Positions 3,005 through 56,991 of a stretch of 64,000 nucleotides of DNA are shown here, piece by piece. The translations under genes were made by a program, and so were the position numbers. The stretch covers positions 91,056 to 155,055 of the forward strand of contig JBDRSV010000024.1 in the NCBI GenBank assembly GCA_043824495.1. The letters are read 5' to 3'. The notes below the pieces were generated by a model. It was not told the DNA's origin, did not search any database, and saw nothing but the letters and a program-made list of their open reading frames with translations. The stretch is from Candidatus Aenigmatarchaeota archaeon (GTDB lineage: Archaea; Aenigmatarchaeota; Aenigmatarchaeia; QMZP01). Position 1 is the stretch's first letter; every line of letters starts with the position of its first letter.

Positions 3005-3009
3005 TTAAT

Positions 3010-3030
3010 TTGTCTAATTAAAGGGATATA
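3010..3030 (-). repeat. Junction motif copy a (reverse complement TATATCCCTTTAATTAGACAA)
   Basis: Read directly from the sequence. GC-rich block on the left, AT-rich r-protein operon on the right. Confidence 0.9.
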
Positions 3031-3110
3031 GAAAGAAAAAATTAGAAATGTTCAGACATATAAACCTTATAAACTATAATGCTCAATAATTGGTATAATT
3101 CGAAAGGAAA

Positions 3111-13083: not shown

Positions 13084-13614
13084 CTAGACACTATTCCACA
13101 ATCTCTGAATTAGTTGATTCATTGTAATCTTTTTCTGGAACAGTTCTTTTACATCATTCTTTTCAATCTGCACTCTTATCTGTGCCTTATTCTCTAAATC
13201 ATTCTTATAAGATTCAACTCTTGCAACTAACTCTGGTTTTATCGCTTCATTTTCAGCTTCTACTGCAAATTTTCTTACAAAAGAAGCATCCATAGCTAAA
13301 AGATCATTTGCAATTCGTTCTCTGTAAAGAGACTTAACCATTTTTGTTATTGTAGCTGCTTTTTCTACAGTAGCTGAATCAGATGCTTTCTGTACCACAA
13401 AAGCTTCTACACTCCCTGCACTAACAGGAACAGCTTCTTCTATACCTAAAGTATCTCTGTAAATACTCTCTTTCTGTGCAGATGTTGTAGCTTGATGTTT
13501 TATTACATCAGATGATCTTATGTCTACTAGAGCAAATCTTCCAGAAGCTTGTACAAGAGACATTGATAAAACTAACAAAATTCCAATTATCATCAAAGTT
13601 AATTTATAGTTCAT
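13084..13614 (-). CDS. Hypothetical secreted protein
   Basis: N-terminal signal/TM MNYKLTLMIIGILLVLSMSLVQA. Confidence 0.5.
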   Translation of the reverse strand: MNYKLTLMIIGILLVLSMSLVQASGRFALVDIRSSDVIKHQATTSAQKESIYRDTLGIEEAVPVSAGSVEAFVVQKASDSATVEKAATITKMVKSLYRERIANDLLAMDASFVRKFAVEAENEAIKPELVARVESYKNDLENKAQIRVQIEKNDVKELFQKKITMNQLIQRLWNSV

Positions 13615-14410
13615 TGAACCACTCCGTTAATTTTATTGAGTGTGCTGGATATGTTTTATCCACCACCAATATTTTTTTCTTCTCTAAATTCTTAAGCGCC
13701 GCTGCAAGACTAGATTTTGATATTCCCGATTTCTTTTCCAGTTCACTTCTCCTGATAACTCCTTTATTTTCTACGACTATATTTACAATCTTCTTTTCAT
13801 TCACTGATAATGTTTTTATGACCGATTCCTTTTTGGATAACCCTGGTTTCATTTTGTGTATGATTAATCCAATTCCAATGATTATGATAATACCAATAGC
13901 TGCAAACACGAATATAATTGGGTCGGTAGTCTTTGGTAGTTCCTTTTCAAATGAATATGATATTTCAATTGAGTTTATTCCTGCCCACCGAAGTTCTGTT
14001 ATATCTCCAGTTTGTATGTAAGCTGAAGGATTTGATGAAATTATTTTTGTGTTGTCAGGCATCAAAATAACAATGTTGTTATTTTGTAATCCTGTATCCA
14101 TATTGAATTTCCAGTTACCGTCTGTTTTTGATGTGAGTAGAGATGTTGTGTACAAAACAACAGCTTCTCTAGTTTCTCCAATTGACACTTCTATATAATC
14201 ATCATGCACTAGATGCAACCCGCCTCTTACTAGTACCTCATCCACATCTGCTGGGATTGGTAGACGATAAATACCTGATCCTGTTATTGTTATGCTTACT
14301 AATGTGTTTCCATTATCTTCTATGATTATGTAATATTCGGTTGCTTCTTGCGCATACACTGTCGGTATCAGCGCGAGCAATCCTATCATGATCAGCAATA
14401 CAACTTTCAT
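13604..14410 (-). CDS. Membrane-anchored protein with extracellular domain and C-terminal winged-helix domain
   Basis: Signal peptide, central TM (IIFVFAAIGIIIIIGIGLII), then IVNIVVENKGVIRRSELEKKSGISKSSLAAALKNLEKKKIL (wHTH-like). Confidence 0.55.
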   Translation of the reverse strand: MKVVLLIMIGLLALIPTVYAQEATEYYIIIEDNGNTLVSITITGSGIYRLPIPADVDEVLVRGGLHLVHDDYIEVSIGETREAVVLYTTSLLTSKTDGNWKFNMDTGLQNNNIVILMPDNTKIISSNPSAYIQTGDITELRWAGINSIEISYSFEKELPKTTDPIIFVFAAIGIIIIIGIGLIIHKMKPGLSKKESVIKTLSVNEKKIVNIVVENKGVIRRSELEKKSGISKSSLAAALKNLEKKKILVVDKTYPAHSIKLTEWFNEL

Positions 14411-14475
14411 ACATGAAAGTTAATTTTTGCCTACTTAAATATGACCTGGGGGAAGGGTTCCCCAGGTATATAATT

Positions 14476-15171
14476 TTACCAGTAAAGACCTGGTCCGAAT
14501 GGGCCGATTGGTACTTCTATTGGTTTATTTGGTTTAGGTTGTGGTGTGTTCCACTCTTCAGGGAACCCTGGTCCTATACCACAGTCCCCGCATACTGCTA
14601 TTCGTGGGAATACTTTGTATTCACCGTATGAATAGTCTCCGTAGATATCCATGGCTTTCCAGTGATTTCCACTGTACCAACCAAAGAAGAGCTCATCTTC
14701 ATAGAAGCCAGCGAATTTGTGGTTCTCATAAATTCCCCATACTTTGACTCCATTATTATCTTCACCAACAAAATATCCATTTGCGTATGTTCCCCATATA
14801 ACATTTTCTCCGTCATGTGTCCATAGAATAAATCTATGTGGTCCTGTGTAGTAGGGCATTGTTTCTCCTGTTGTATCAGAAGATCCTGTACTTGGAGCTT
14901 CCATTTTGTCTACTGTAGCTTCGTAACTTGAAGGTATAGAAGCTGTAGCTTCTGTTTTAAACTCTTCTAGCTTATCTGCTACATTCGTTTTCACGATTTC
15001 TATATGCTCTGTGTTCACGCTGTTAGCGAATCCAAATCCCCTCTTCATATCATTCAGTTTCTGAATAAGAGGTTCATAATCCTCGCTTGAAACAGCTTGT
15101 GTTGAGGCAATTCCTAGTGCCAATACTGACACGAAAACAATTGCCATAATATATTTGGTGTCCATTTTCAC
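14476..15171 (-). CDS. Hypothetical secreted protein, Tyr/Gly/Trp-rich repeats
   Basis: Signal peptide MKMDTKYIMAIVFVSVLALGIAS, with repeated GxY/WG motifs. Confidence 0.5.
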   Translation of the reverse strand: MKMDTKYIMAIVFVSVLALGIASTQAVSSEDYEPLIQKLNDMKRGFGFANSVNTEHIEIVKTNVADKLEEFKTEATASIPSSYEATVDKMEAPSTGSSDTTGETMPYYTGPHRFILWTHDGENVIWGTYANGYFVGEDNNGVKVWGIYENHKFAGFYEDELFFGWYSGNHWKAMDIYGDYSYGEYKVFPRIAVCGDCGIGPGFPEEWNTPQPKPNKPIEVPIGPFGPGLYW

Positions 15172-15240
15172 ACCCCCTTGACATCACCAAGGAATGAACA
15201 GGATATAAAGACCATACCGAACAAAAGTGAACAATCATGT

Positions 15241-15264
15241 TATATCCCTCTAATTAGACAATAT
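15241..15264 (+). repeat. Junction motif copy b (TATATCCCTCTAATTAGACAATAT)
   Basis: Read directly from the sequence. AT-rich on the left, GC-richer block I2 on the right. Confidence 0.9.
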
Positions 15265-15267
15265 AAA

Positions 15268-15298
15268 ACAATCAGGTGCCGAGTGCACACCTAATTGT
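15268..15298 (-). terminator. Imperfect hairpin downstream of the last gene of block I2
   Basis: ACAATCAGGTG (15268-15278) pairs with CACCTAATTGT (15288-15298) with one mismatch. On the gene strand it is followed by TTTATATT. Confidence 0.5.
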
Positions 15299-15315
15299 CC
15301 TTGCCAATCCTCTTC

Positions 15316-16422
15316 TCATCTCAGCTTCAAAAACGCTATATGAGGTGCAGGCAGCCACTTGACTAACGATTCAGTCCAAGAGAAAGACCATTTCAGCTTC
15401 TTCTTCATCTCGTGAACCTTCATACATTTCACCGAGACTAGATTCCAGTTCAGGATGCCGAAAGCTGTGCCCAAGAGACCACCGACAAGCATAACGAAGC
15501 CCTGTCCTACAAGATCCATTCCGGCGGAGGAAACGAGAAATTTGTAAGCGAGAAATCCGCCCAAGACTCCGTCAACTGCACACAACACTCTCTGGAAACA
15601 GTGAACCATCTTGATGATGTTCCAGATAAACTGACCGATAAATGTGAGGACCACCGAGATGCACACCAAGACAACGAAAATGACGGTCAGTGCAGTGAGA
15701 ATTGGGTACCAGACAGAAAGTAGAAGCAAACTGAAGAGAATGTATCCCATCGCGTTGAGATACCCGAGTTTTATTTCTCGGCGGTTCTTCTCCTCAAGGA
15801 AATACCTCCTTCTTAACACACCGATGTCGTATTTTTGGTCCGTGTGTCTGCTTATTCCGAGAGCCTCCCCAATACTCTTATAGTTGTACAAAACGTCTTC
15901 CCCGCTAGCGTCTTTCTTATCGACCATCATGAAAGGATAGAAGAACCTTCCGCGATCACGACTTCCAACAAAAGCGAGGAAAGAAAGAACGCCGGAAAAG
16001 ATCACAACACAGGCACCAGAGAGCGCCAACAGAAGAATGCTGCTGAGAGCGAGTTGAAGGATGTTCAGTGTTTCAGCATCTGCGAAAAGACCGGAAAATA
16101 TGTGATGTGCTGGCCACAAGCCGAGCACAAGACTCGGAAAAAGGAACGGGTGTGGCTTCGAGCATAACCAGTCCTTGGCTTTTCCGTAGTTGTCTCTGAT
16201 ATAAAACGGCCAAGTTCCGATATCATCCAACATCTCTCCGAGCATCACTTGGATCGCTTTGGCCACCTCACGGAGGTCGTAACCAAAATAACCAGCTGCT
16301 CCGCCGGCCAGGAAAGCAGCAACCCACATGTACAACTTGTCCGGCATCAGCCACATGGCAGTTGCACAGAACACGATGCCTCCAATGAAGCATCCGATTC
16401 CGATCTTCATCCAATCTTTCAT
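15316..16422 (-). CDS. Hypothetical polytopic membrane protein
   Basis: 368 aa with multiple hydrophobic helices. No family recognised. Confidence 0.6.
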   Translation of the reverse strand: MKDWMKIGIGCFIGGIVFCATAMWLMPDKLYMWVAAFLAGGAAGYFGYDLREVAKAIQVMLGEMLDDIGTWPFYIRDNYGKAKDWLCSKPHPFLFPSLVLGLWPAHHIFSGLFADAETLNILQLALSSILLLALSGACVVIFSGVLSFLAFVGSRDRGRFFYPFMMVDKKDASGEDVLYNYKSIGEALGISRHTDQKYDIGVLRRRYFLEEKNRREIKLGYLNAMGYILFSLLLLSVWYPILTALTVIFVVLVCISVVLTFIGQFIWNIIKMVHCFQRVLCAVDGVLGGFLAYKFLVSSAGMDLVGQGFVMLVGGLLGTAFGILNWNLVSVKCMKVHEMKKKLKWSFSWTESLVKWLPAPHIAFLKLR

Positions 16423-16489
16423 GGCGAAAATCTCCTTCTCGTTGTATTTCTTTGTTTATAGTTATCGTCCTAGAATTAATTCAAAACAA

Positions 16490-17041
16490 TCATATCTGCA
16501 AAGGTTCAAGCAGATACATCAGACTTCGGTCTCGTAATTCTGTCCTCTTATAAGGAGGGAGATCTATGAGACAAAGACTGGAAATACTCACGTGCATGGT
16601 TTGATACTTGGTTTCGTCTGCTTGGTACATTCCCGTAAAGATTATATTATTCAGGACAAACCCGGAAACTACTGTCCAGATCCAGAATGCCATCCATCCA
16701 TCGTACAAGAAGACGCTGGCAATCGCTGAAATGATTGCACCCACTGCGAGAACACCTACCTCAAAGAGAAGCATCGTAAAGATATCTCCCACGGGGTCGT
16801 TTTTGTCCTCTTCCCACCAATCCTCCATGACGAGTTCGTGGATAATCATGTCAATGAGATTCTGCCTGTTCTGCATTTTCTCGTGGTAGGCTATGAAACG
16901 AGTTGGTTGACGAATGTTGTGCCAGATGATCAATCCAATTGGCACCCAGATGACTGCTGTAGTGACAAGCAGCCAGAGAACTACTCTAGTTTCCATGTCC
17001 CCTCCAGGATTGATTGTTAGAAAAAATACTAGTATAATCAC
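16490..17041 (-). CDS. Hypothetical membrane protein
   Basis: 183 aa with about 4 TM helices and a GTG start at 17039-17041. Confidence 0.5.
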   Translation of the reverse strand: MIILVFFLTINPGGDMETRVVLWLLVTTAVIWVPIGLIIWHNIRQPTRFIAYHEKMQNRQNLIDMIIHELVMEDWWEEDKNDPVGDIFTMLLFEVGVLAVGAIISAIASVFLYDGWMAFWIWTVVSGFVLNNIIFTGMYQADETKYQTMHVSISSLCLIDLPPYKRTELRDRSLMYLLEPLQI

Positions 17042-17221
17042 TCTCGTTAATTGACATTTCTGTCTTTCGTTGTCGTAGAGTATTGATTCCTAAATTACAG
17101 ATGATGACTTTACCTCGAACAAGAATCTTGTGCCAGGTGCTAAAAGTTGTCAGCGATGATAAATGTGGAACATGATGCATAGAATTTAACCTAAAATTTT
17201 ATAAACCTATACAAAACCTTT

Positions 17222-17244
17222 TTATACCTCTTAATTGACAATAT
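17222..17244 (+). repeat. Junction motif copy c, divergent (TTATACCTCTTAATTGACAATAT)
   Basis: 18 of 22 positions match copy b in my ungapped alignment. Lies 5 nt upstream of ATG 17250. Confidence 0.65.
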
Positions 17245-17249
17245 ATAGT

Positions 17250-17639
17250 ATGAAGAAAAAAGCAAAGAGGACCACAAAGAAAACAGTGAAAAAACCAGTC
17301 AAGAAAATAAAAATAGAAAAGAGAGTAACACCAAAACCAAAAAAAGAAGAGAAAATTAAATGTCCTTATTGTAAGAGTTCTAGAGTGGTTTGGAGAGGAT
17401 ATAGATACAACGAAAAGACTGACAAGCACTTAAGATTATGTAACAACTGTAAGAGAAAGTTCACAAAAAGAGACGAGTTCTTCCGTATGAGATTCGGTGA
17501 AGAAGAGATAAAAAGAGCTGTGGAATTATACAAGAAAGGTTATTCTTCTGCAGAAGTAGTTCAGAACCTGAAAAGAAATCATGGAATAAAGGTTTCAAGA
17601 TGGACTGTGATCTGTTGGCATAAGAGATACACTAAGTAA
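17250..17639 (+). CDS. Zinc-ribbon plus HTH protein, IS1 InsA-like / transposase N-terminal-domain-like, without a catalytic domain
   Basis: Lys-rich N-terminus, CPYCKS...LCNNCKRKF (CxxC...CxxC), then GYSSAEVVQNLKRNHGIKVSRWTVICWHKRY (HTH-like). AT-rich backbone composition. Confidence 0.6.
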   Translation: MKKKAKRTTKKTVKKPVKKIKIEKRVTPKPKKEEKIKCPYCKSSRVVWRGYRYNEKTDKHLRLCNNCKRKFTKRDEFFRMRFGEEEIKRAVELYKKGYSSAEVVQNLKRNHGIKVSRWTVICWHKRYTK

Positions 17640-17659
17640 TTATTTTTTTTATCAGTTAT

Positions 17660-17681
17660 TATATCCCTTTAAATGGACAAT
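17660..17681 (+). repeat. Junction motif copy d (TATATCCCTTTAAATGGACAAT)
   Basis: Read directly from the sequence. A T-run lies upstream and GC-rich block I3 lies downstream. Confidence 0.9.
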
Positions 17682-17686
17682 GCAAA

Positions 17687-17723
17687 GGGAGAGGTGCAGT
17701 ATTCCACATCTGCACACTCTCCC
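17687..17723 (-). terminator. Imperfect hairpin downstream of the T9SS-domain gene
   Basis: GGGAGAGGTGCAG (17687-17699) pairs with CTGCACACTCTCCC (17710-17723), with mismatches. Confidence 0.5.
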
Positions 17724-17754
17724 ACCACATCACCTTTTCAGGCTTTGCAGATTT

Positions 17755-19629
17755 TTACTTCAGAAGCGTCATCTTTTTGCTTTCCGTCAGGCTGGCCGTT
17801 TGCAACCGATAGAAGTACATACCGGACGCGACGGCCTTACCGTAGCGGTCGGTTCCGTCCCAGCTAACCTGATGTGTTCCTTCGGGCTGGGACCCGTTGA
17901 CGAGAGTGGCAACGTTGCGGCCGAGGATATCAAAGACCTCTAGCTTTACGTCTCCTCCCTGAGTCAACTGATAGGAAATCACGGTTCCGGCGTTGAAGGG
18001 GTTCGGGTAGTTCTGGTTCAAGCTGAATGATGTAGGAACGGCTCCTGTTGTCTTGTACGCGATGTTCAGCGTACCTAATGGAATCCACCCAGCCGGAACT
18101 GTCCGGCTGTTGTTGATCTCGTCAGCTATCGTTTTGGCCAACTCGTGATCGCCGAATGGATCGTCGATCAAGTTGTCGCAGTATGTTACCGCCTGTGACA
18201 CAGTCGCGCCGTCATCGCTAATCACAGCGGTTTGTGCCAGTTTGCCGCTAGCGACATTGAGTAGCAAAGCCATGAGTTGCTGTCTGGCTCGATCAATCAT
18301 GTCAACGCTGCCCTTGAGGTTCAGCAACGTCTTCGCGACTTCGAGCTTGTCTTCACAAAGATCCGACACGGGTGGATCGTACACGACGACCTCGTTCACT
18401 GCGTTCGAGTTGAAGTGGCCCGCGATGAGGTCGAGATAGCTACACAGAGTTGAAGCATCGATTTGCGCGCGGCCATTCCCACCAGTAGCGACGCCGACGT
18501 TGTGTTTCCAGAAGCCGATTGTTCGTTGTTCTCCAGCGTCTGACGGGCATCCCAATTCAAAGTCGATTTGGGCTGTGCCTTCACAATCGAGATCGACGGA
18601 CTGTTCGCTCGGAAATGCCGTATACCCGAGGGGGCCAACAAATGATACCATGTAGCTGGCCTCACCCGGGAGGTTCTCGAAATCGTAGTAACCGGCTTCA
18701 TCAGTCACAGCCGATTCTACAAGTACACCGGTGGCATCGAAGACATCAATCGTGATACCAAGAACAGAGCAGTCAGCACTCAGTGTGCCCTCAATTGCGG
18801 CGAAGCATTCTTCCTCTCCACCTCCGCATGCACACGTTCCATCTTCCACCTCAATGGCGGTGATGGTGTTGTCGTAGGCGTCCTTTGACCAGACGACGGT
18901 CAACGGCGCGAAGTTGATGACGTCGCATTCGAGATCCTCATCCCGACCACCGATCGTCGCGAAGTCACTGAGATACACGCCCGTTGTCTTGTCAATGCGA
19001 ACGATGTTGCCCAGACCATCGCGCCCGATGTAAAGGGTGTTCCCCGTCCCAACAATAACACCACTTATTCGATCCAGTGTATTGCCGGCCGCGTCGGTCG
19101 GATACAACGTTCCCAGATAGGCTCCCGAGCCCGCATCGAAGTGGTCAATGCCCGTTGATACATCATCGGAAACCCAGACACTGTTATCCGTCGCATCAAA
19201 GCCAATGCCGTCGATGAAACAGAAGCCCGGTGTTACCACAGAAAACTGGAAAGTGGCTACGCCGGTGGTGGGATCGATGAGATACACGTTCGCCGGACAT
19301 TCGTTGTCACTGCCTCCCCAGATCATGTTGCGCGTATTGTCCCATGCAATAGCGCCGATCGAAACTGGTGTGCCATCCGGTTTGAAAATGGAAACGAAGC
19401 CGAGATCGGTGCCGAATTTGTCTATCGAGTAGAGAGTTGGGTCGAAAGAGTTGGTGTAGAAAATCACACCATCACATCCAACTGCAACACCGATACCGAC
19501 ACCAGACGAGCTTGGAACAGGAACTGTGACGTTCGTGATGACATCACCGGGAGCTGCCATTGACGTAGCGGTGATAGCGGTGAAGAGGCAGAACACAACA
19601 AGCGCAGTGAAAGCTGTGAGACGCTTCAT
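17755..19629 (-). CDS. Secreted beta-propeller/CarboxypepD_reg-like protein with T9SS (Por) C-terminal sorting domain
   Basis: Signal peptide MKRLTAFTALVVFCLFTAITATSMA. The C-terminal NYPNPFNAGTVISYQL...VFDILGRNVATLV...GMYFYRLQT...KKMTLLK is the classic T9SS CTD pattern. GC-rich. Confidence 0.85.
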   Translation of the reverse strand: MKRLTAFTALVVFCLFTAITATSMAAPGDVITNVTVPVPSSSGVGIGVAVGCDGVIFYTNSFDPTLYSIDKFGTDLGFVSIFKPDGTPVSIGAIAWDNTRNMIWGGSDNECPANVYLIDPTTGVATFQFSVVTPGFCFIDGIGFDATDNSVWVSDDVSTGIDHFDAGSGAYLGTLYPTDAAGNTLDRISGVIVGTGNTLYIGRDGLGNIVRIDKTTGVYLSDFATIGGRDEDLECDVINFAPLTVVWSKDAYDNTITAIEVEDGTCACGGGEEECFAAIEGTLSADCSVLGITIDVFDATGVLVESAVTDEAGYYDFENLPGEASYMVSFVGPLGYTAFPSEQSVDLDCEGTAQIDFELGCPSDAGEQRTIGFWKHNVGVATGGNGRAQIDASTLCSYLDLIAGHFNSNAVNEVVVYDPPVSDLCEDKLEVAKTLLNLKGSVDMIDRARQQLMALLLNVASGKLAQTAVISDDGATVSQAVTYCDNLIDDPFGDHELAKTIADEINNSRTVPAGWIPLGTLNIAYKTTGAVPTSFSLNQNYPNPFNAGTVISYQLTQGGDVKLEVFDILGRNVATLVNGSQPEGTHQVSWDGTDRYGKAVASGMYFYRLQTASLTESKKMTLLK

Positions 19630-20175
19630 GGATTTTTATTCCTTAGGTTGTGAGGGAAATATGACCCTCCGGGTTTGTTTTTCGATTAGTTTCTGATTGT
19701 TTGTCGTTTACCACGTTTCCAAGTTAAGGTCCGCGAATCGCTATTTTCATTGGCATCCTCTCTTTGGGTTAATGTTGTCCGCACAAATTGCGGGATTAAA
19801 AGAAGGAAAGACACAAAAGATAGAGTATGTCTTATGTAGACTGAGAGTAAAATCATTCGAAGAATAAAGCTAATACTATTAAAACAAACATGCATGTTTG
19901 ATGTGTTTCTTTTCATGTTTTTTGTGTTAGCCAATGTACCGTTTCTATGGTTAATTGGATTGATTGAGTTGCAATCAATACAAATTTAAATGATGTTCGA
20001 ATGAGTAGCATGATTTAAATTGTATACAAAAATTGACGTTGATTCATCGTCGTTTTTTTGTGTTTTGGTATTTTTTTTGATTCTAGCTTGTCGCTTTTGT
20101 CAAGTCTTTAACTCAAGTATATAGCTTACAGGTATTTAAATGTTTTCTAACACATTTTTTTTAATTTTCTTTCTT

Positions 20176-20197
20176 TTATCCCTTTAAATAGACATAT
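20176..20197 (+). repeat. Junction motif copy e (TTATCCCTTTAAATAGACATAT)
   Basis: Read directly from the sequence. A T-run lies upstream and GC-rich block I4 lies downstream. Confidence 0.85.
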
Positions 20198-20206
20198 AAA
20201 AAGGCA

Positions 20207-20259
20207 AACGGGCGAAGATTTGGAGCCAAACTCTTCTTGATGTCTCACCTCCGCCCGTT
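20207..20259 (-). terminator. Compound hairpin next to motif copy e
   Basis: AACGGGCG (20207-20214) pairs with CGCCCGTT (20252-20259), with an inner GAAGATTTGG/CCAAACTCTTC stem. On the minus strand it is followed by TGCCTTTTTATAT. Confidence 0.4.
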
Positions 20260-21168
20260 AAATGCCGTTGTCCGGCCTATCAATTTACCCGCCGGTTAGG
20301 TGAGCACATGTGCTCGTGTCCCAGAGGCGCATGTTTTCATGCCCTCCTTTGCCGGGTTCTTACGCGAACGTGCTGCTTGACCGAGATAATGTAGCTGCCA
20401 GATTCCCCACAACCTTGTTATTGGTGGAACCGCGACAGCGGTCGGTCCAGTCCGTATGCATCGTAGCCTCACTTGGTGAAGGACTGCGAATCAAGAGACG
20501 GGGATTCAGAAGAATCCCCGTCTCACGAGTTGACGGTTGGTACGAGATATATCAAAGGAAGTCTTTATGCCATTGGGTGCATTCCGAAACCTTTAGCCTC
20601 GTCCGTCTCCGAGGGATCCTATCAAAGGTTTCATAAAGGAAATTTCATGGACCTCGTTACGATAGGATCGGAGTGGCGTAAAGCCACGGCCAGAACCTCG
20701 AGGTCCCCCAGGATAAGATCACCGTTTGAATATGAGTCAGCGGTGAACGTAAGGGTGCTGGCGATTCTTCTTCGCATTCAAACCCTCCAGGGAACACTTC
20801 GTAATTTGTGTTGTCAGCGGCTGTTTACGAATCGGCGGTGATCGTTTCCACCACGGTACATGTCGGCGTGGTGACAAACGATGAAGAAGCGACTTCAAAA
20901 CGCGCGCGGCCATTGCTCGGCGGCGGCGAATGAGCCCAGGCATTGACGGCGGTCGCGGCGGTATTCATCCAGGAAGCGACCACTGGTGACCCGCGAAGGG
21001 TCGGTAATCGGTTCATAGAGCAAGCTCCATTTCTTCCGATAGGAAAATTCCAATCCACTTTACAAACTCTCGCCTAAACAGAAAGTATTGTCACATAACT
21101 TTCCGTCGCAAAAGAGAATGTGAAGAGGAAACAATTTCGTACACCTCGTCAAGAGATCGTCTCCATTT

Positions 21169-21534
21169 TCACCCTACATGGGCTAGGCGAGAGGATAGAC
21201 CAGTTGCTGATAGAGATGTAGAGGGAACCGTTTTCATCCGAAGATCTCTCCCGTCCCTCAGGGAGTAAGTTGCTCGTCCACCAGGTTCCCATACCAAGGG
21301 AGCTGGCAACTCTGCCATTCTCTCTATCCGACTCTCTGTTGTCATCGCCACTACGGCAACAACTCTTAGCCTATCCGGCGTAGGATTATGAGAGTGTAGA
21401 GCGAATTCCTCGTTCCATGTTTGTTCTGTATCGCTGCCTGTTATGATATCCAATCCTGAAAACGGGATTGGGTCAGCGGTATAAACAATACAGGAACCAT
21501 ATATGAGGTAGCAGAGTGTCATGATTCCCAGCAT
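21169..21534 (-). CDS. Possible small secreted protein
   Basis: AAGGAG lies 5 nt upstream of the ATG, with a hydrophobic N-terminus MLGIMTLCYLIYGSCIVYTA. It is the only ORF in block I4 with a good RBS. Confidence 0.4.
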   Translation of the reverse strand: MLGIMTLCYLIYGSCIVYTADPIPFSGLDIITGSDTEQTWNEEFALHSHNPTPDRLRVVAVVAMTTESRIERMAELPAPLVWEPGGRATYSLRDGRDLRMKTVPSTSLSATGLSSRLAHVG

Positions 21535-23161
21535 GACAACTCCTTACAAGGGCACATGGTTATATGGTAAATGCTCTCTCCGTCAACAAATCGTGCCCTC
21601 TAAGACATGTTTAGGAGAGAAAGGCGACAACTCATGAAGTGTTCTTCAGGTGGACCCGTCATCACTGTTATTGCGTTGACGGCCTTCTCCTTGACCCGGA
21701 CTTAGACGTGTGGCTTTCGGTGTTTTCGCGGCGCGTTTCTGCTGTTTTGGACTACGCTTCTTGTTGCTCGGAAGCCCGTCTCGGGCACCACCGTGACACG
21801 TCATGAAAGACCTCGTTTGTGAGGAGTTCAGTTCAAGCTTGTGCTGGAACTGTTTGGAACGAGGAATTGTTACTCTTTACGGCGAGCGATTGTGTGTCAT
21901 CGTAACTCCTTGACAATGGTTTCCACAAGCTCCAAAATAAAAAAGAGCTGTTGTTTTCAAATTCAGTTGGGAATCTCCTAGCCCGCCCCCAGAACTGACT
22001 AGAGGAGATCCCCAACTTTTGTACAGCGCACCCCGTGCATTGTTTTCAGGGTGGAGGGGCCCGGCGGTCAACTGAGCCCCTCACTGGACGAATCGGTCAC
22101 AGATAACATGTTACGCATTACCGACTCGAAATCTATGCCACGGCAGTAGATGGAAGTGGTCGCATCTACCGCCGGGCTTCACGACGTTGTGCATTTTGTC
22201 GCCTTCAGCCTTACACAACGCCGTTATTTCCCCACCCACAGGGAATTTAATATCGCGGGGCCTCACTCAGGAGACCCCGCTTCCGTTGGGTTTACTACCG
22301 AATTGTTCGGTAGCGTTCTTCCACGACAGACATACGCACATGCGCACGTCTTCATTTCTTTGAGGACCTACTCATCTCCGATTTGAGTAGGTCCTCGGCT
22401 CCCCACAACCCCCCGATCAGCACCGGGAATTTTTTTGAGGGGAAATCTGAGCAGATATCTCAGACTCCCCTCCCGTCAGGTCTACCGACCAGCACTTCCG
22501 GTTGGACGCCGGAAATTCTTTATTAGAAGGGGTTTCCCCTCTCCAAGAAACCCCTTCCTCTTCGGCGTAGCGCGTCTCACGCGCTTTAGTGCATCGATCC
22601 CCACCGATCAGGTAAAACCCTTGGATGGTTCTCTCCCCGAACCCCCACTGAAATATTTTGGAACCCCTCATAGATCCCCGTAATCTCCGAGAGGTTCCGA
22701 CAGCAGCACCATACAAATGGGACTACCGTGACAATCAAAAATACCGGAATCCACCGCGTCAGAAGAGGATTCCGGTATTCTACATCGCTGGTTGTGTTGA
22801 GAGCTTACCCCTTACTGGTCTTAACGAGTATGTTACGTCGGACTTCCTTTCACCAAATATACGGGTCACTACAGAATACCCGATCGATCCGCTTTGTTGT
22901 CTTAATCTCACCAGCGGATAGTGACGCGGTTACAGCCAGCGATTTCGCCTTTATACAACAGGCGTCTCCAAACCAAAATGGAAATTGGAGTTGTTGCTTC
23001 CACACTTCCGGATTTCCCCCTCCGGTAAACTCTAAGGTACTGATAGGTGACCGCTCGTGTTTCTTGTGTTCGCAATTGCCGATTGCATCAAGCTCTTCGT
23101 AGATCTAGATCTGGAAGTAATTAGCAAACGATCACAATAAACAGACAACTGGGAGAAGTCC

Positions 23162-23788
23162 ATTTCTACCAGTACCTGGATTTTCTAACCCTCGGGAGGT
23201 GTGTACAAGCCTAAGCAGAGTTTGTCCTGTTGAATTGGCCCCGAGGGTAAGTGGCCTTCCGGAAGAGAATTGGTGAGGTCCTGTAACAGAACTCTATCTC
23301 ATTCCGGGGTAAAGCTCAAGGCACAGCCAGAAGGAGACGTATTACCTTGAGAAGTTGGTCTCCCGAGTGAAGAAATTCGAGATGTCCCATCGATGAAGGA
23401 CATCTCTTCTCCACTCGGGCTCATTCGTCAGCCTGGAAGGAGAAGTGCAAGAGTTTTCGCGCAATTACTCTCTCTCCTCCCGGGAAATTTATGACCTCCT
23501 GGTCCGAAACTTGTGCCGCGGTAAACCAGAAGGCGTAACTGCTAGGCTATGTGACGGCCACAGCAGTAGGGATCGAATCCAATACACGAAAGACAGCTAA
23601 GACTAACTCTGTCTCGTGTGGTTTACGAGTAAAATTCAGAAATCGATAGTCTTCGGCCTCTTCGAGGGAAACTGCTTAAGCGCTTAATTGCAGCGCGTTA
23701 TGTTTCCTGGTAAGTGACCTGTTCTCTAGGATGTACCGAAGGCTAACTTAGTTAGTCTCGGGAAATTCGCGTGTGATTGGTAGAAATG
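23162..23788. ncRNA. Candidate ~630-nt structured RNA (family unknown, strand undetermined)
   Basis: CATTTCTACCA (23162-23172) is complementary to TGGTAGAAATG (23778-23788). Internal helices include CCCTCGGG/CCCGAGGG and GAGATGTCC/GGACATCTC (23379-23406). No ORF. Confidence 0.35.
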
Positions 23789-23949
23789 AAACATGAAATG
23801 TCCTTATATATAAATGTAATTTAATTACTTAAATAGGTTGATGGATAGCTTTAAAAAGGTACTATTAAAATTATTTTTTTGTGAAGGGATCGATATACCA
23901 AGTGCTTCCAAAAATAAAGAGTAGAAAAAAATAAGAGTGAAAAAAGCAA

Positions 23950-25992
23950 TTAACCAATGAATTCAACCTTTTCAAAACTGCCGTTTTCTTCAAATTTGTC
24001 TAATGTTGATACGAAAATTATTACTTTTTTCTTGTCTTCTTTACAGATTCTAGCTGCTTGTTGTATTACCATGTTCTTGATTCTGTCTGAAGCACATATG
24101 AAATGATTGCTTTGTTTCAAGTCCTGATAAATTAATTCTCTATCATCTGTGTCTTCAACCATTATAGTTAATTCTTTTCCATCGTTCTGTAAATATATTC
24201 TGTTACCTTCTTGTTCACTCTTCCATCCGACTTCATTAAAGGTCTGCATGATACCTGTTAAGTTCAATTCTTTTTTCTGTGTTGAGTTACCAAATTTATT
24301 AGTGAAAACTTTCTCTCCTATATTTGTAAGAAAGTAATAACATAATCTATTCTTCTTAACTTTAGCATCAGCTGAATCAACTAATCCGTTATAAGTTAAG
24401 TTCTCAACCTTTTTCTTGAAAGTTGCTCCTGACATTTTTACATTTGTGTATATCTGAGATGTGTAAGCAGCACTACCATTACCAATGGTTTTCATCATAG
24501 CCCACTCTTGTTCTCCTAAATCCTCAATTGGAAGAGAGTTTATGAATTCTTCTTCCTTTACTGGAGGAGGTGAGTAGCTATCTTCTTTAGCTATTCTGTC
24601 TTTCATGTGCTCTCTGATATCATCATCTACAATAGAGTTCTTAACCAGTTTAGCCTTGTCGAATTTTACAAGGAATGGTTCTGGGAAATTCATAGAGTGT
24701 CTCAAAAGCATGAAACCGTGACCTACTGGCAGTCTTCTTAGATACTTACCTTCTTCTCTAGAATCAAGACCAAGCATGTTTGAAGCGTCTTGAATATCTG
24801 AAGTATGTTTTGTATCCAAACCTAGATTCATGTATATATGAGTAGAAGTATTACCAATTGCTGGATATGAAACTAAAGATGGATGCTGATCTATGTATAT
24901 CATTCCTAATCCTAATTCTCTAATTTCTCTAAATATTAATTCTACAACGGTTTCTGATCCTAATTTGGCAGATTTTTCTCTGTTAAGAACATGATGAGCT
25001 TCTTCCATCACTATACATCCTATGACTTCTTCTTTTCCGCCTTCTACGAGTAACCAATCTCTTATCCACTGTAGAATTATTTCTATGATAAAGCTCTTAT
25101 CATTAACATCAAGAGCATCTAATTCTAGAATTGTTACCTTTCCTTTCTTGAAGAAATCAGATGGTTTTATACCTTCTACACAGTCGAATATATGACCTGT
25201 GTCTTTGAAGCATAATGACTCTAATGGTCTTTCAGCTGTTGCTAACCAGTTTCTTTCTCTTGTTGGCAGCTTACCTTCTGCATATTCTGCTAAGTAATCT
25301 TTAAGGTCAAACAGTGTTGGATTTTTCTTTTCCTTGAAAACTCCATCTAAAGCTTTCAAGATTACGTGTCTTCCACCACCGAGTAACCAGTAAGAATGAT
25401 CGAATATTGAAGAGAACTCTTTCATCCACTGTGTTTGACTAATTCCTTTAGGACCTTTCAGTGGATTGAATTTGAAAGGAGCTACGCCTCTTCCGATTGT
25501 GTAAATATCTATTTTGTCTTTAATTTTAGTTGATAGTAAATCTTTATAATTTCTCTTAGAGAAATCAAATATCAAAACAGGAATATCCTTTTCTGCTAAT
25601 TCTTCAATTAAGTTATATGAAATATTTGTTTTACCATAACCAGATGAACCAAATATTCCTATATGTGTAAGTAAGTTTTTCTCTTCTAGCATGATTGGAT
25701 ATAAACCCTTTCTTCCGTATAAAACATCACCTAATCTAATTGTTCCTTTAGCTGCTGCTTCTTGGCTAGGAGGTTCCATTAGTACTGTATCTCTTAGATC
25801 TTCATCAGCAGAAACTGCGGCTTTTATAACATCAAGTAGTTCGAAGATTCTTTGTCTTACATCTTCGTTTCCAACTAAGTAAGCTTTACTTAATCTCAAA
25901 GCTTTGTCTTTACCCAAGATTGGAGTAAGCTTCTTAATTTCATCTGCAATTAGTTTTTCTTGAATATTAATCATTTGTACCACCCAAATCAT
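23950..25992 (-). CDS. HerA/DUF87-type P-loop ATPase with C-terminal winged-helix-like region
   Basis: Walker A GIFGSSGYGKTN and Walker B-like GCIVMEEAHHV. 680 aa. Confidence 0.7.
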   Translation of the reverse strand: MIWVVQMINIQEKLIADEIKKLTPILGKDKALRLSKAYLVGNEDVRQRIFELLDVIKAAVSADEDLRDTVLMEPPSQEAAAKGTIRLGDVLYGRKGLYPIMLEEKNLLTHIGIFGSSGYGKTNISYNLIEELAEKDIPVLIFDFSKRNYKDLLSTKIKDKIDIYTIGRGVAPFKFNPLKGPKGISQTQWMKEFSSIFDHSYWLLGGGRHVILKALDGVFKEKKNPTLFDLKDYLAEYAEGKLPTRERNWLATAERPLESLCFKDTGHIFDCVEGIKPSDFFKKGKVTILELDALDVNDKSFIIEIILQWIRDWLLVEGGKEEVIGCIVMEEAHHVLNREKSAKLGSETVVELIFREIRELGLGMIYIDQHPSLVSYPAIGNTSTHIYMNLGLDTKHTSDIQDASNMLGLDSREEGKYLRRLPVGHGFMLLRHSMNFPEPFLVKFDKAKLVKNSIVDDDIREHMKDRIAKEDSYSPPPVKEEEFINSLPIEDLGEQEWAMMKTIGNGSAAYTSQIYTNVKMSGATFKKKVENLTYNGLVDSADAKVKKNRLCYYFLTNIGEKVFTNKFGNSTQKKELNLTGIMQTFNEVGWKSEQEGNRIYLQNDGKELTIMVEDTDDRELIYQDLKQSNHFICASDRIKNMVIQQAARICKEDKKKVIIFVSTLDKFEENGSFEKVEFIG

Positions 25993-26515
25993 TAAAGATC
26001 TTTAAGATCTTATTTTCTGTTTGTAGTTGTTCCAGGAGCTCTCTTAGCTCTGTTTTTAATTCTAATCCATCTCTCCAAAAAAGAATATTTTCTTGTCTTT
26101 TTTCTTTTCTGAGAATAGAAACATCAAGTTTGAAATTTCTCTTTTCATCGATGTCTGTGATATGATTCATCATATCGTCTTTTTCTTCGATGTCTTCTTC
26201 AATTTCTTTTAAGAATGTTTTGTGGAGAACTTCTCTTTCTTTCATAGTGTTTTCAATTTCACTAACTCTTATTTGCAAGAATTCTACTTTATCGAATAAG
26301 CTTCCAATAACTAGAGGATCATCTCTTTTTAGAGCAGTGAGTTTACTTTCTTCAAATCTTGGCATTGATCTTTTCTTAATAATTTGAACTTCTCTAACTT
26401 CGGGTTCATCTAGATCAATCTCATCATGTCTAATTAAAGACTCACGTCTTCTCTTTTTTGTAATGTCTTCATACTCGTCAAGAGTTTTATAATAGGGTTC
26501 CATTAATCTGTCCAT
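25967..26515 (-). CDS. Coiled-coil protein, overlaps the start of the ATPase gene
   Basis: 182 aa, highly charged with a heptad-like E/K/L-rich sequence. Confidence 0.5.
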   Translation of the reverse strand: MDRLMEPYYKTLDEYEDITKKRRRESLIRHDEIDLDEPEVREVQIIKKRSMPRFEESKLTALKRDDPLVIGSLFDKVEFLQIRVSEIENTMKEREVLHKTFLKEIEEDIEEKDDMMNHITDIDEKRNFKLDVSILRKEKRQENILFWRDGLELKTELRELLEQLQTENKILKIFNDLGGTND

Positions 26516-27353: not shown

Positions 27354-27377
27354 CGGAAACTTCTGGGAGGGATTGTC

Positions 27378-28942: not shown

Positions 28943-28995
28943 TCAACGGCTTGGAAACCAAGTCAAATCAACGACAATGAAAGTTGAGGTGTAAT

Positions 28996-31975: not shown

Positions 31976-31976
31976 G

Positions 31977-36279: not shown

Positions 36280-36286
36280 GATTTGT

Positions 36287-36308
36287 ATTGTCTAATTAAA
36301 GGGATATA
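36287..36308 (-). repeat. Junction motif copy f (reverse complement TATATCCCTTTAATTAGACAAT)
   Basis: Read directly from the sequence. GC-rich block on the left, AT-rich DNA on the right. Confidence 0.9.
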
Positions 36309-36316
36309 AGAGTTAA
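36308..36316. repeat. 9 bp target-site duplication AAGAGTTAA (left)
   Basis: Identical 9-mer at 45467-45475, each directly abutting a terminal inverted repeat. Confidence 0.85.
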
Positions 36317-56951: not shown

Positions 56952-56966
56952 TTTTTTATAACCTTC

Positions 56967-56990
56967 TATATCCCTTTAAATAGACAATAT
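56967..56990 (+). repeat. Junction motif copy g (TATATCCCTTTAAATAGACAATAT)
   Basis: Read directly from the sequence. VanZ stop plus a T-run on the left, GC-rich block I6 on the right. Confidence 0.9.
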
Positions 56991-56991
56991 A

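Follow-up and report, generated by a model that had tools for sequence, protein, structure and literature searches.

Solo right ends of an IS6-like insertion sequence and a DDE-less transposase relative beside foreign DNA in an Aenigmatarchaeota genome

Introduction

IS1 encodes InsA, a zinc-finger and helix-turn-helix (HTH) protein that has the IS1 terminal repeats as its binding sites and acts as a repressor of a promoter in the left end, and RAYT is a domesticated IS200/IS605-type transposase that has kept its catalytic domain and is tied to REP elements, which are hairpins. The locus described here lies in a 64-kb stretch of Aenigmatarchaeota DNA, the whole of which was analysed and is referred to here as ‘the window’. 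It resembles IS1 in that a small Zn-ribbon and HTH protein, referred to here as the ‘head protein’, is encoded beside terminal repeats that hold its own promoter, and this protein has weak Pfam and NCBIfam similarity to InsA and to IS1/IS1595 zinc ribbons. Unlike InsA, however, the head protein is the product of a gene that stands alone at a fixed place in the chromosome and is conserved across species by descent, it has no InsB/DDE partner, and its binding and repression are putative. As with REP/RAYT, a transposase derivative that is present once and inherited vertically lies between cognate repeats, and more copies are scattered intergenically, mostly just past gene 3′ ends and by hairpins; in contrast to that system, the head protein lacks a catalytic domain, the hairpins vary while the conserved repeat is not palindromic, and the parent belongs to another transposase superfamily.

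The hallmark of IS6-family structures is a set of IS copies in direct orientation around passenger DNA (PMC7986276; PMC4196232). The window shares with IS26/IS6 pseudo-compound transposons and translocatable-unit arrays a repeat that is the terminal inverted repeat (TIR) of an IS with a DDE_Tnp_IS240 transposase, direct-orientation ends that divide unrelated passenger segments, outward promoter elements in the ends, and, as we propose below, accretion beside an existing copy (PMC7986276; PMC4196232). In those arrays, however, whole IS copies lie between the segments, whereas the window has solo right ends and no active transposase in view. The window element is also of the archaeal ZnF type, a branch with only a distant relation to IS26 and no experimental work behind it, transposition experiments included (PMC6807381); its family has a TIR of about 24 bp and a target repeat seen as 9 bp, and the passenger genes in the window consistently converge on the end. 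The archaeal IS6 ends that have been published consist of TIRs 18 bp or longer, in which the core is TGT and the tip is often not GG (PMC6807381; PMC7986276).

Archaeal integrons are known, and have been proposed as platforms for cross-domain transfer (PMC9668308). Like integron arrays, including the archaeal ones (PMC9668308), the window has successive unrelated units, each ending in a variable fold by a conserved core, and foreign, possibly cross-domain genes; unlike them, it has no IntI among the ORFs scanned and no attC architecture, its repeat is a transposon end, and its genes lie on the other strand and run towards the repeat.

Results

A position weight matrix (PWM) scan of the 64-kb window found six strong copies (28–34 bits) and one degenerate copy of a repeat of about 24–26 bp (TTATATCCCTTTAAWTAGACAATAT; outer tip GACAATAT; Table 1). 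Allowing up to three mismatches, the 18-mer TATCCCTTTAAATAGACA had 6 matches vs. 0.11 expected, a number reached in 0/100 shuffles of the window. Its matches outside the array lie at 3011–3028 (−), 36289–36306 (−) and 56969–56986 (+), and the array copies are on the + strand throughout (repeat-family search, family D1; sequence). The earlier note, which had proposed four same-orientation copies delimiting unrelated units, was thus right about the copies, and its account of the units (GC content, strands, and membrane, Zn-ribbon/HTH, T9SS and ORF-poor contents) was borne out as well. A partial fifth copy that it placed at 17043–17056, on a start codon, does not hold up: this stretch has 8/18 mismatches, falls under the PWM threshold and lies ~47 nt upstream of the likelier ATG (16996; independent gene call).

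Table 1. Features of the window that bear on the repeat and its surroundings.
Feature	Position	Strand	Evidence
Solo IS6-like right-end repeat	3006..3031	−	PWM 31.3 bits; 0/18 mismatches
Solo IS6-like right-end repeat, array copy 1	15240..15265	+	PWM 29.9 bits; family D1
Terminator-like hairpin of converging 368-aa gene	15265..15301	−	Terminator scan; sequence
Payload unit 1: two multi-pass membrane proteins, 368 aa and 183/168 aa	15316..17041	−	Hydrophobic segments; GC 46%
Degenerate repeat copy just 5′ of head gene	17220..17245	+	PWM 13.9 bits; 4/18 mismatches
Head gene: DDE-less Zn-ribbon + HTH protein, 129 aa	17250..17639	+	Homology, profile search, dN/dS, synteny
Right-end repeat directly 3′ of head gene	17659..17684	+	PWM 31.5 bits
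Hairpin, 13-bp stem, between repeat tip and T9SS-gene stop codon	17687..17728		Sequence; stem survey
Payload unit 2: 624-aa T9SS C-terminal sorting-domain protein	17755..19629	−	Por_Secre_tail + FlgD_ig domains; GC 54%
AT-rich non-coding stretch upstream of T9SS gene	19630..20173		GC 32%
Solo right-end repeat, aimed at ORF-poor block	20174..20199	+	PWM 28.4 bits; 0/18 mismatches
ORF-poor, hairpin-rich 3.6-kb block	20200..23790		GC 50%
HerA-like ATPase (680 aa) + 182-aa protein	23950..26515	−	DUF87
Solo right-end repeat	36284..36309	−	PWM 34.2 bits; GC jump +0.14
Solo right-end repeat	56966..56991	+	PWM 30.4 bits; GC jump +0.17; hairpin alongside

We found that the motif is the right-end TIR of a zinc-finger-type IS6-like insertion sequence of archaea. 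In related archaeal contigs there are complete copies, in which a ZnF-HTH-DDE(IS240) transposase gene has the motif on either side of it in inverted orientation. The complete element in contig L076 encodes a 312-aa ZnF-HTH-DDE ORF between ends that read GATATTGTCAATTTAAAGGGATAT and GATATTGTCTAATTATAGGGATAT (21/24 inverted), and a 9-bp CCGCAAACG outside both ends marks a target duplication in this one copy, vs. the 8 bp of the family, a discrepancy that counts against our preferred explanation. The same end recurs in L100–L102 next to three distinct flanks, and GATATTGT is where contig L102 both begins and breaks off; L074 and L098 hold diverged versions of the end. When the L076 and L102 IS DNA was compared with the window by blastn, motif copies were matched via the IRR terminus (93–96% over 24–28 nt): the copy at 3006 matched the IRR end of the L076/L102 IS, the first array copy matched L076 IS positions 982–1009 (93% over 28 nt), and the copy at 36284 matched the IS end (96% over 24 nt). 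Relatives of the head protein that are 280–315 aa long carry DDE_Tnp_IS240 (profile search) and are annotated in their source as IS6 family transposases, and the identity is further supported by the fit of the ends to the published description of archaeal IS6 ends. What the window itself retains of the element is a set of six solo right ends in good preservation, a degenerate copy and a gene derived from it; neither a complete IS, nor a DDE remnant of the IS6-like element, nor an inverted partner was found by PWM and blastn anywhere in the 64 kb.

The element-derived gene is the Zn-ribbon/HTH ORF. Its product corresponds to the DNA-binding head at the N terminus of ZnF-type IS6-like transposases, of which it is a homolog that stands alone and lacks the DDE catalytic domain. 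The head protein is 49% identical to residues 3–97 of the L074 transposase and has a unique Lys-rich extension of 33 aa at its N terminus; its NCBIfam IS6 and IS1/IS1595 Zn matches are below cut-off. The gene (34% GC) is under purifying selection (dN/dS 0.00–0.11 in close pairs), and between species its synonymous sites are saturated while protein identity is still 70–77%. The copy that follows it is syntenic in relatives, 8–95 nt past the head stop codon (L040, L043, L047, L048, L050–58, L068 and others), and keeps 16–17 of 18 positions across species with saturated synonymous sites. The order ArgRS, head gene, repeat, gene-free gap and HerA recurs in L040–42; in L043/44 and L068 the order from head gene to HerA is kept and ArgRS is not upstream. 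The HerA-like ATPase and 182-aa genes are backbone and form the conserved far anchor of the locus (synteny L040–L043, L068). The head gene with the repeat after it, and usually also one before it, is an old, vertically inherited fixture between ArgRS and HerA in Aenigmatarchaeota, and what had been described as a second payload is the repeat system’s own protein and not cargo.

At the degenerate copy upstream of the head gene, the head ATG lies 9 nt after GACA, and TTTTATAC sits at the 5′ edge, about −30 to −23 of the ATG. This ‘type 1b’ arrangement of degenerate copy and head gene is also found in L047, L048, L042 and L059. In at least nine independent loci the head ATG is 17–19 nt past the repeat, and loci of the IS type have a second TATA directly beside the repeat. 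Archaeal promoter geometry is confined in relatives to the position upstream of the head gene; at other places the repeat has, for the most part, the 3′ end of a converging gene before it, and ~14 copies face converging stop codons 26–130 nt off.

The backbone has 33–35% GC, and each of the six strong ends is directed outward, into a GC-rich (45–54%) block; outer GC exceeds inner GC by 0.08–0.17 at 6/6 of them. Outside the array, the copy at 3006 points left into an island at 1–3000 (M32 carboxypeptidase and others), with the start of the uS17 ribosomal-protein operon on its inner side; the copy at 36284 points left into a 27–36 kb island with genes on the + strand, and the copy at 56966 points right into a 57–59 kb island with genes on the − strand.

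Within the array, the first copy points into the membrane-protein unit, and the T-rich tail of the hairpin beside it extends into the repeat tip (ATATTGTCTA). The two membrane proteins have no Pfam, NCBIfam or PHROG match, and the block at 13084–17222 that includes them, from ArgRS to the head gene, is missing in relatives, in which ArgRS abuts the head gene. The T9SS-tail gene is of bacterial ancestry: its named homologs, matched in the C-terminal half, are from Zixibacteria (50–62% identity), and its best full-length homolog sits in a bacterial context. The AT-rich stretch upstream of it ends in ~30 nt that are similar to the inner, T-rich flank of the copy at 17659 (family D3, 48 nt, 73% identity), and no transposase remnant was detected in this stretch. 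In the ORF-poor block the longest ATG/GTG/TTG ORF is 124 aa and the longest stop-to-stop frame 142 aa; eight of the nine stop-to-stop frames of at least 90 aa between the T9SS gene and HerA have no Pfam match, and the block has no Rfam match. It has 6 perfect hairpins vs. 0.75 expected, with fold z scores for 20195–21100 of −4.1 (+) and −6.4 (−). It occupies the same position as the gene-free gap of relatives (2.1–2.5 kb), and has no sequence similarity to the L040 or L043 gaps. The junctions have one anatomy, in the same order each time: end, A-run, hairpin, stop codon.

Homology between the window and L040 ends 2 nt past the 17659 repeat and picks up again at HerA. Among relatives, L058 has six same-orientation copies ~1 kb apart with tRNA and protein payloads, and L053 has an additional 383-aa gene unit beside a repeat copy when compared with the 96% identical L051. 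An apparent replacement between L060 and L061 was rejected as a cassette swap and reflects rapid divergence of a stem-closed domain. Finally, we found no tyrosine or serine recombinase, IntI included, in the ORFs scanned; however, a DDE_Tnp_1 transposase lies at 44028–45038 and the head ORF derives from the transposase family that owns the repeat, so the earlier note’s statement that the window holds no recombinase stands only for the former class.

Discussion

The earlier observation is partly confirmed. The repeats are part of a mobile-DNA recombination system and, all in one orientation, do mark off segments that are unrelated and of foreign composition, with arrays (L058) and unit gain or loss (L051/L053) in relatives, so its reading of the repeats as mobile-DNA boundaries is supported; the att/attC part of that reading is not, with neither a tyrosine/serine recombinase in the ORFs scanned nor attC architecture. 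We favour, with moderate confidence, the explanation that these are solo IS6-like ends kept with a domesticated head, and that the array was built by transposase-type joining.

The steps that we infer are given in decreasing order of support. The head protein would bind the repeats, as the same domain must in the parent transposase (homology and geometry), and, since TATA-like boxes in the repeat precede the head gene at the spacing of a leaderless mRNA, it probably autoregulates, the repeats serving as promoter/operator or boundary sites to which protein is bound. On its outer side each end may be a hot spot for DNA replacement or addition, which comparative anatomy suggests because every strong end here abuts a GC-rich block, at least one of them bacterial in origin, and payload genes converge. 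Last, the same kind of evidence suggests that the direct-orientation array at 15240–20199 most likely arose like IS26-type arrays, by cointegrate formation or targeted end-to-end recombination with a full-length transposase supplied in trans, and that incoming IS bodies were later lost, which would leave right ends alone; with no complete IS, DDE remnant or second boundary present, accretion by a transposase is an inference. Several results count against parts of this explanation. The full-length transposase that the last step requires was not seen in the window or in the genome data examined, and neither repeat-family search nor PWM found a second conserved boundary of units, which weighs against accretion. 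The L051/L053 break lies ~50 nt beyond the repeat, not within it, and DNA was replaced there rather than cleanly inserted. Most relatives lack the GC jump (mean +0.02), which is specific to certain lineages (window, L072, L047), and the strong bias of payload genes to converge on the end is not predicted by the transposase model.

We consider unlikely the explanation that the former IS ends are only exapted regulatory sites of the domesticated head protein (promoter/operator sites, or roadblocks and insulators) and that the islands came by unrelated routes. Leaderless promoter spacing in at least nine loci and the conservation of the 3′ repeat despite synonymous saturation would be expected of such sites, as would the missing GC jump in most relatives, a window with neither IS body nor transposase of the repeat’s family, and ends that usually lie between the terminator hairpin of a converging gene and the next gene. 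On the contrary, all six strong copies lie exactly at the edges of GC-rich blocks and are aimed into them, homology between relatives stops 2–50 nt from the tip, a promoter antisense to converging 3′ ends has no obvious regulatory logic, and IS6-type recombination gives rise to just such tandem arrays, with payloads that are unrelated, as the window and L058 show.

That the motif is instead the general BRE/TATA promoter consensus of the lineage, as the earlier note had allowed for if copies preceded many backbone genes, we judge very improbable. The motif does include TTTAAATA, with the head ATG at +17 to +19, and in a few cases (L001, L076) a copy faces a sense gene across a leader of ~50 nt; yet not one strong copy is sense-upstream of a backbone gene in the ~45 kb of backbone, ribosomal-protein operon included, the 24–26 conserved bp go far beyond BRE plus TATA, the motif forms inverted pairs around a transposase gene, and ~14 copies face converging stops.

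An assembly chimera, in which GC-rich bacterial or other DNA was misjoined to the archaeal, AT-rich backbone at a short repeat that both have, is scarcely credible. It would account for the sharp 33% vs. 50% GC alternation and the bacterial-type genes of one island, and L072 and L073 are identical up to 53% vs. 70% GC DNA, so that one of these two contigs may be chimeric. However, an independent Logan assembly of SRR26275509 recovers the junctions at the 3011, 15243, 17662 and 20177 copies, which makes the misassembly raised in the earlier note unlikely; the exact word common to copies is at most 18 nt, below assembler k-mers, an archaeal IS end is not expected in a bacterial genome, and every junction has the one ordered anatomy. 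An integron-like or att-site cassette array built by a tyrosine/serine recombinase, as the earlier note had it, is likewise next to untenable and already refuted on its defining features: same-orientation repeats do separate unrelated units, each payload 3′ end does carry a variable stem-closed domain beside a conserved core, and archaeal integrons offer a precedent (PMC9668308), but the recombinase is missing from the ORFs scanned, the conserved 24 bp lie outside the hairpin with no R″/R′ pairing and no GTTRRRY core, the motif demonstrably forms the terminal inverted repeats of a DDE transposon that is flanked by a target duplication, payload genes aim at it from the opposite strand, and copies are dispersed and not limited to one array.

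On the preferred explanation of solo IS6-like ends with a domesticated head, a DPANN archaeon keeps solo IS ends together with a transposase remnant that lacks catalysis, and these ends border DNA that is foreign and, in part, bacterial.

A repeat at the edges of GC-rich islands

The backbone of the window is cellular and archaeal (ArgRS, a ribosomal-protein operon, RibBA, a YGR210-type GTPase, an intein-bearing inositol-1-phosphate synthase and HerA) and has a GC content of 33-35%; the blocks that interrupt it have 45-54%. Four copies of a short motif, all on the plus strand, had been described in the earlier note as delimiting successive units, and sequence inspection and a repeat search recovered all four. 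An 18-mer (TATCCCTTTAAATAGACA, ≤3 mismatches) matched the window 6 times vs. 0.11 expected, a count reached in 0/100 shuffles. A position-weight scan built on the trusted copies returned six strong sites (28-34 bits) and a degenerate one at 17220 (13.9 bits), and nothing else in the window clearly exceeded the shuffled background; the same scan revealed no inverted partner near any copy, and hence no complete IS or MITE. A partial fifth copy claimed at 17043 mismatches at 8/18 positions and is therefore not a copy. The repeat is real and highly non-random. Misassembly is unlikely, because an independent assembly shows four of the junctions again and because the copies share an exact word of at most 18 nt. 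Two Logan contigs of SRR26275509 join, with an overlap of only ~18 nt, where the membrane-protein unit has its upstream edge, a meeting point that reflects a graph branch or a coverage drop; we found no other junctions near window position ~17100.

Every strong copy sits at the edge of a GC-rich block and points inward to it, and, as the block genes lie on the strand opposite to the motif, each copy falls just beyond the last stop codon. Between the repeat and that stop codon come an A-run and then a hairpin rich in GC, which differ from copy to copy. The rise in GC on the outer side was seen at 6/6 strong window copies and at two homologous loci of relatives (L072 and L047), and is absent in most relatives. 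The contents of the units proved to be as first described: two multi-pass membrane proteins (46% GC), a Zn-ribbon/HTH ORF (34%), a gene with a T9SS tail (54%) and a 3.6 kb ORF-poor block (50%). The named relatives of the T9SS-tail gene are Zixibacteria and its best full-length homolog lies amid bacterial genes; at least one payload is therefore a cross-domain acquisition, and its donor could not have supplied the archaeal repeat. A viral origin was rejected (a single motif match in 2.9 M viral contigs, and payloads without PHROG families).

The window holds three more islands of 49-52% GC, each of which ends at a solo copy; one encodes a full-length M32 carboxypeptidase (E = 3e-178), and another contains eight ORFs, nearly all of them without family assignment. 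Elsewhere we noted a PD-(D/E)XK nuclease-like ORF, a 908-aa Eco57I/MmeI-like fused restriction-modification enzyme, an IS4/IS5-type DDE_Tnp_1 transposase unrelated to the family of the repeat, and a myo-inositol-1-phosphate synthase gene (841 aa) split by an intein with a LAGLIDADG homing-endonuclease domain, the ortholog of which at the homologous locus L040 is 360 aa long and intein-free.

Positions of repeat copies and associated features in the window and in homologous loci of relatives
Sequence	Position	Strand	Feature	Remark
Window	3011-3028	-	Repeat	18-mer search
Window	15240-15265	+	Repeat	
Window	17220-17245	+	Repeat	Degenerate
Window	17659-17684	+	Repeat	
Window	20174-20199	+	Repeat	
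Window	36289-36306	-	Repeat	18-mer search
Window	56969-56986	+	Repeat	18-mer search
Window	15316-17041		Membrane-protein gene pair	
Window	~17094-17112		Meeting point of two Logan contigs	
Window	17250-17639	+	Head gene (Zn-ribbon/HTH)	
Window	17250-17348	+	N-terminal extension of head protein	
Window	17755-19629		T9SS-tail gene	
Window	20200-23790		ORF-poor block	
Window	20195-21100		Stably folding segment	
Window	1-3000		Island	M32 carboxypeptidase
Window	27000-36300		Island	Eight ORFs
Window	57000-59100		Island	
Window	36936-37589	+	PD-(D/E)XK nuclease-like ORF	Just within the 36284-36309 end
Window	39330-42056	-	Restriction-modification enzyme	
Window	44028-45038	+	DDE_Tnp_1 transposase	
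Window	47035-49560	-	myo-Inositol-1-phosphate synthase	
L058	3080-6280		Units ended by the ~250 nt module	
L058	5500-5680	-	tRNA-like sequence	
L056	1080-7415	-	2111-aa ORF	
L068	549-2443		LSU rRNA match	

The repeat as the terminus of an IS6-like element

An exact motif scan of species-representative genomes found the same anatomy of motif, A-run and hairpin in several MAGs of Aenigmatarchaeota or uncultured archaea; the bacterial matches were unrelated coding sequence. At two of the archaeal loci the motif adjoins a homolog of the window's Zn-ribbon/HTH protein, hereafter the head protein. An exhaustive profile search revealed that its ~95-aa domain is also the N-terminus of many proteins of 280-315 aa that carry the IS6-type catalytic domain DDE_Tnp_IS240 and are named IS6 family transposases by their sources; PF13610 is carried by the homologous proteins P0152, P0172, P0173, P0175, P0180 and P0194, and P0180 is itself named 'IS6 family transposase'. 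L076 and L074 encode full-length proteins (312 aa and 292 aa, respectively) that align with P0152, P0180 and others in the DDE part, so that complete elements in relatives have a DDE transposase with an IS240-type catalytic domain, which is absent from the window.

At L076 the motif lies at both ends of the gene, inverted and outward-pointing (GATATTGTCAATTTAAAGGGATAT and GATATTGTCTAATTATAGGGATAT, 21/24 inverted positions), and an identical 9-bp sequence, CCGCAAACG, stands immediately outside both ends and is probably a target-site duplication (8 bp being the expectation for the IS6 family). L074 showed no such duplication, and the other IS copies are on contigs that end at the IS. The tip reads GATATTGTC in L076 and GGTATTGTC in L074 and L098, loci with diverged versions of the ends. 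L100-L102 show the same end as L076 beside three different flanks, and contig L102 starts and stops precisely at GATATTGT. In blastn searches, the IS DNA of the relatives matched the window's motif copies via its right-end terminus (93-96% over 24-28 nt) and otherwise only the inside of the head gene, weakly (81-96% over 23-27 nt).

Members of the IS6 family combine an HTH with a DDE domain, with a zinc finger in the long members, and have short inverted repeats with a TGT core as well as passenger DNA flanked by copies in direct orientation (PMC7986276); their terminal inverted repeats measure 15-20 bp with G-rich tips (PMC7986276), and in the archaeal branch at least 18 bp, with tips that are often not GG (PMC6807381). 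What we observed fits both descriptions: the complete elements of the relatives have short terminal inverted repeats of this kind, and the head has a CPxC...CxxC ribbon together with an HTH, as do the N-termini of long members. The complete elements with motif ends, the blastn and tblastn matches and the published family features together show that the motif is an IS end and that the window has solo right ends only.

A catalysis-less transposase derivative kept beside its site

The Zn-ribbon/HTH ORF, counted in the earlier note as a cargo unit, is instead a DDE-less derivative of the element's own transposase: tblastn with the transposases aligned the head gene to residues 3-97 of the L074 protein (49% identity) and, at relaxed thresholds, detected no DDE remnant elsewhere in the window. 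The NCBIfam IS6 profile matches the head at positions 2-52, below its cut-off, and profile A3 matches the N-termini of IS240 proteins (E ~1e-13 to 1e-20). An AF2 model of the head protein comprises a ribbon and a helical bundle (pLDDT 72.5), and a fold search of the PDB with this model gave generic HTH matches only (E > 0.3). The window's head protein is identical to one encoded on a 171.8 kb contig of a Candidatus Aenigmatarchaeota MAG; an exact look-up of the HerA protein gave no record.

Relatives have kept a gene order in which ArgRS is followed by a Zn-ribbon gene of ~95 aa, the onward-pointing motif, 2.1-2.5 kb free of genes, and HerA with a 182-aa gene on the other strand; a metagenome scan that used the protein alignment as query yielded 45 loci, with the motif coupled to the head gene throughout. 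The dN/dS of the head gene is 0.00-0.11 in close pairs, and between species the protein is 70-77% identical despite saturated synonymous sites, with invariant Cys ligands and HTH residues. In those species the repeat after the head gene is kept at 16-17/18 positions, and the surrounding intergenic sequence is not alignable. This conservation marks head gene and repeat as a domesticated gene-plus-site pair and not a decaying IS.

The motif stands upstream of the head gene on the same strand at no fewer than 9 independent loci (L064, L044, L067, L051, L070, L071, L050, L024 and L086), with the ATG 17-19 nt past the motif end, a distance that, as geometry, would correspond to archaeal TATA box spacing before a leaderless mRNA. 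At loci of the window type, TTTATATA lies at the 5' edge of the motif, 22 nt before the ATG, and in a third type of locus the reverse-complemented motif abuts a second TATA box that would serve the head gene. By sequence geometry this would agree with an archaeal BRE/TATA promoter, in which a TATA-like octamer is centred ~26 nt before the start of a leaderless transcript. The window's own head protein begins with 33 additional, Lys-rich residues (MKKKAKRTTKKTVKKPVKKIKIEKRVTPKPKKE), which are missing from all ~95-aa orthologs. With the repeat copy before it degenerate, the head gene may have another start site or another regulation in this genome.

Variation on the outer side of the ends

Homology between the window and L040 ends 2 nt past the repeat and restarts at HerA, and the gene-free gaps of the window, L040 and L043 have no detectable sequence or translated similarity to one another; tblastx 'hits' to L043 and L068 were artefacts of linked-HSP statistics. 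At L058 we found six same-orientation copies ~1 kb apart, and payloads encoded on the other strand: a small membrane ORF, two tRNA genes and two proteins of ~260-276 aa in length. Each unit there ends in a conserved module of ~250 nt comprising TGAAACC, GAGAGTTTGTGAAYATGA, a TATA box toward the payload and then the repeat; its alignment is too weak to claim a MITE with a degenerate left end. No second boundary element of this kind was found for the units of the window. Both tRNA genes lie in one L058 unit, and the anticodon called for one of the two is odd; a further stretch of this locus looks like an intron-containing tRNA and has no ARAGORN or Rfam call.

L053 has one complete unit (a 383-aa gene) more than L051, to which it is 96% identical, and this unit starts ~50 nt past the common repeat and hairpin. 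L072 (at 7100) and L073 (at 3305), from different assemblies, are 100% identical over a 3.3 kb stretch that takes in the head gene, the repeat and the next 268 nt, after which the DNA of the two is unrelated, with 53% and 70% GC; either the payload varies between strains or one join is chimeric. The difference between L060 and L061 is fast divergence of a stem-closed domain; in such a stem, L051 and L053 differ by two compensatory pair changes, and folding energy and G-U asymmetry were split 10 vs. 15 on the strand of these domains. A 2111-aa ORF at L056 runs toward a repeat copy, and 66 nt separate its stop codon from the end of the repeat, so payloads beside ends can be giant genes. At L068, the 828 positions (2146-2973) of the Rfam archaeal LSU rRNA model that are matched extend over 1895 nt, which implies a ~1 kb insertion in the 3' region of the 23S rRNA, perhaps an intron or a homing-endonuclease gene.

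The ORF-poor block

The block beyond the last array copy lacks a convincing ORF. Neither Rfam (gathering and E-value thresholds) nor ARAGORN matched the window or this block, Pfam did not match the block, and decayed T9SS or other genes were rejected on the lack of any tblastn or Pfam signal. The block contains six perfect hairpins of 8-13 bp vs. 0.75 expected, and its proximal segment forms much stronger folds than shuffled sequence does, on either strand (z = -4.1 and -6.4). At its position relatives have a gene-free gap without sequence similarity, and tRNA genes occur in the equivalent region of L058 and L072. Decayed foreign DNA is one possible identity of the block; native or novel structured RNA genes are another, as RNA genes often account for GC-rich islands without ORFs in AT-rich genomes.

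A possible mechanism and its alternatives

The most economical reading has three parts, in which we infer binding, promoter activity and recombination; the identities of the parts themselves are established. The head protein would bind the ends and, given their suitably spaced TATA-like boxes, control its own gene and possibly other ends too. The outer flank of an end would be a hot spot for DNA replacement and addition. Finally, the tandem array would have formed as IS26 arrays do, by transposase-mediated joining beside an existing end, with subsequent loss of the incoming IS bodies. Of movement by cointegrate or targeted conservative recombination, the window preserves the end-state anatomy only, namely same-orientation ends around unrelated segments. 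Several observations weigh against IS26-type accretion: the window lacks a full-length transposase, any remnant of a DDE domain, an inverted partner and a second boundary; the break between L051 and L053 is imprecise; and the bias of payload genes to converge on the end is unexplained. The lack of experimental knowledge of archaeal IS6-like elements (PMC6807381) also counts against it. The accretion between direct repeats that had been proposed for this array is partly right in spirit and wrong in kind, as the repeats are solo IS6-like ends and the second payload is the element's domesticated DNA-binding protein.

The chief competing explanation takes the ends as exapted regulatory or boundary sites and nothing more, with islands that came independently; the ends would then be a neat but ordinary case of IS remnants put to use as promoters or operators. 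The idea that the motif is a general promoter of the lineage fails: no backbone gene of the window is preceded by the motif, and most copies away from the head gene face converging stop codons 26-130 nt off. Promoter function as the whole story is likewise rejected, given that copies make inverted pairs around a transposase gene and mostly face gene 3' ends.

The att-site or integron-like cassette array first suggested for these repeats also fails. An attC site is an imperfect palindrome whose conserved R''/R' cores (GTTRRRY) pair together; the conserved 24 bp here lie outside the hairpin, are not self-complementary, and adjoin a hairpin that changes with every copy, so that no attC architecture is present. 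The integron integrase IntI is a tyrosine recombinase (PF00589) with an IntI-specific domain (PMC9668308), and neither PF00589 nor any other Tyr/Ser recombinase was found among the ~55 window ORFs compared with Pfam, a set that takes in part of the ribosomal-protein operon ORFs and of the short ORFs. A piRNA-cluster-like antisense idea, favoured by orientation alone, was dropped.

Implications for DPANN genomes

IS6-family ends and passenger arrays are known; new here are their occurrence in a DPANN archaeon and the combination of solo ends with a conserved DDE-less head. The single-copy, syntenic inheritance of a transposase derivative alongside dispersed repeats is shared with REP/RAYT systems; however, RAYT is catalytically intact and REPs are palindromic, whereas this protein lacks a catalytic domain and this repeat is not palindromic. 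It is conceivable, although we consider it improbable, that Aenigmatarchaeota have domesticated an IS6-like element as a two-part chromosomal system, in which a catalysis-less head at a fixed locus and dispersed ends at gene boundaries mark, insulate or recruit foreign DNA, bacterial DNA included. Such a system, if true, would be what REP/RAYT or an integron platform is elsewhere, in an archaeal form derived from a DDE element, and would account for the stacking of cross-domain acquisitions at defined sites in a DPANN archaeon that depends on a host.

As markers, the repeat and the head gene make variable or foreign regions easy to find in Aenigmatarchaeota MAGs, and the ~95-aa protein and its 24-bp site form a pair that is directly testable in vitro. 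If the three-part reading is right, it would add a further case of transposase-domain domestication with cognate sites retained, and would extend to archaea the IS26-style building of arrays, so far a story of bacterial antibiotic resistance. IS6-like ends and a conserved, catalysis-less transposase derivative would then provide a sequence-defined handle on how DPANN archaea take up and organise foreign DNA, bacterial genes included.
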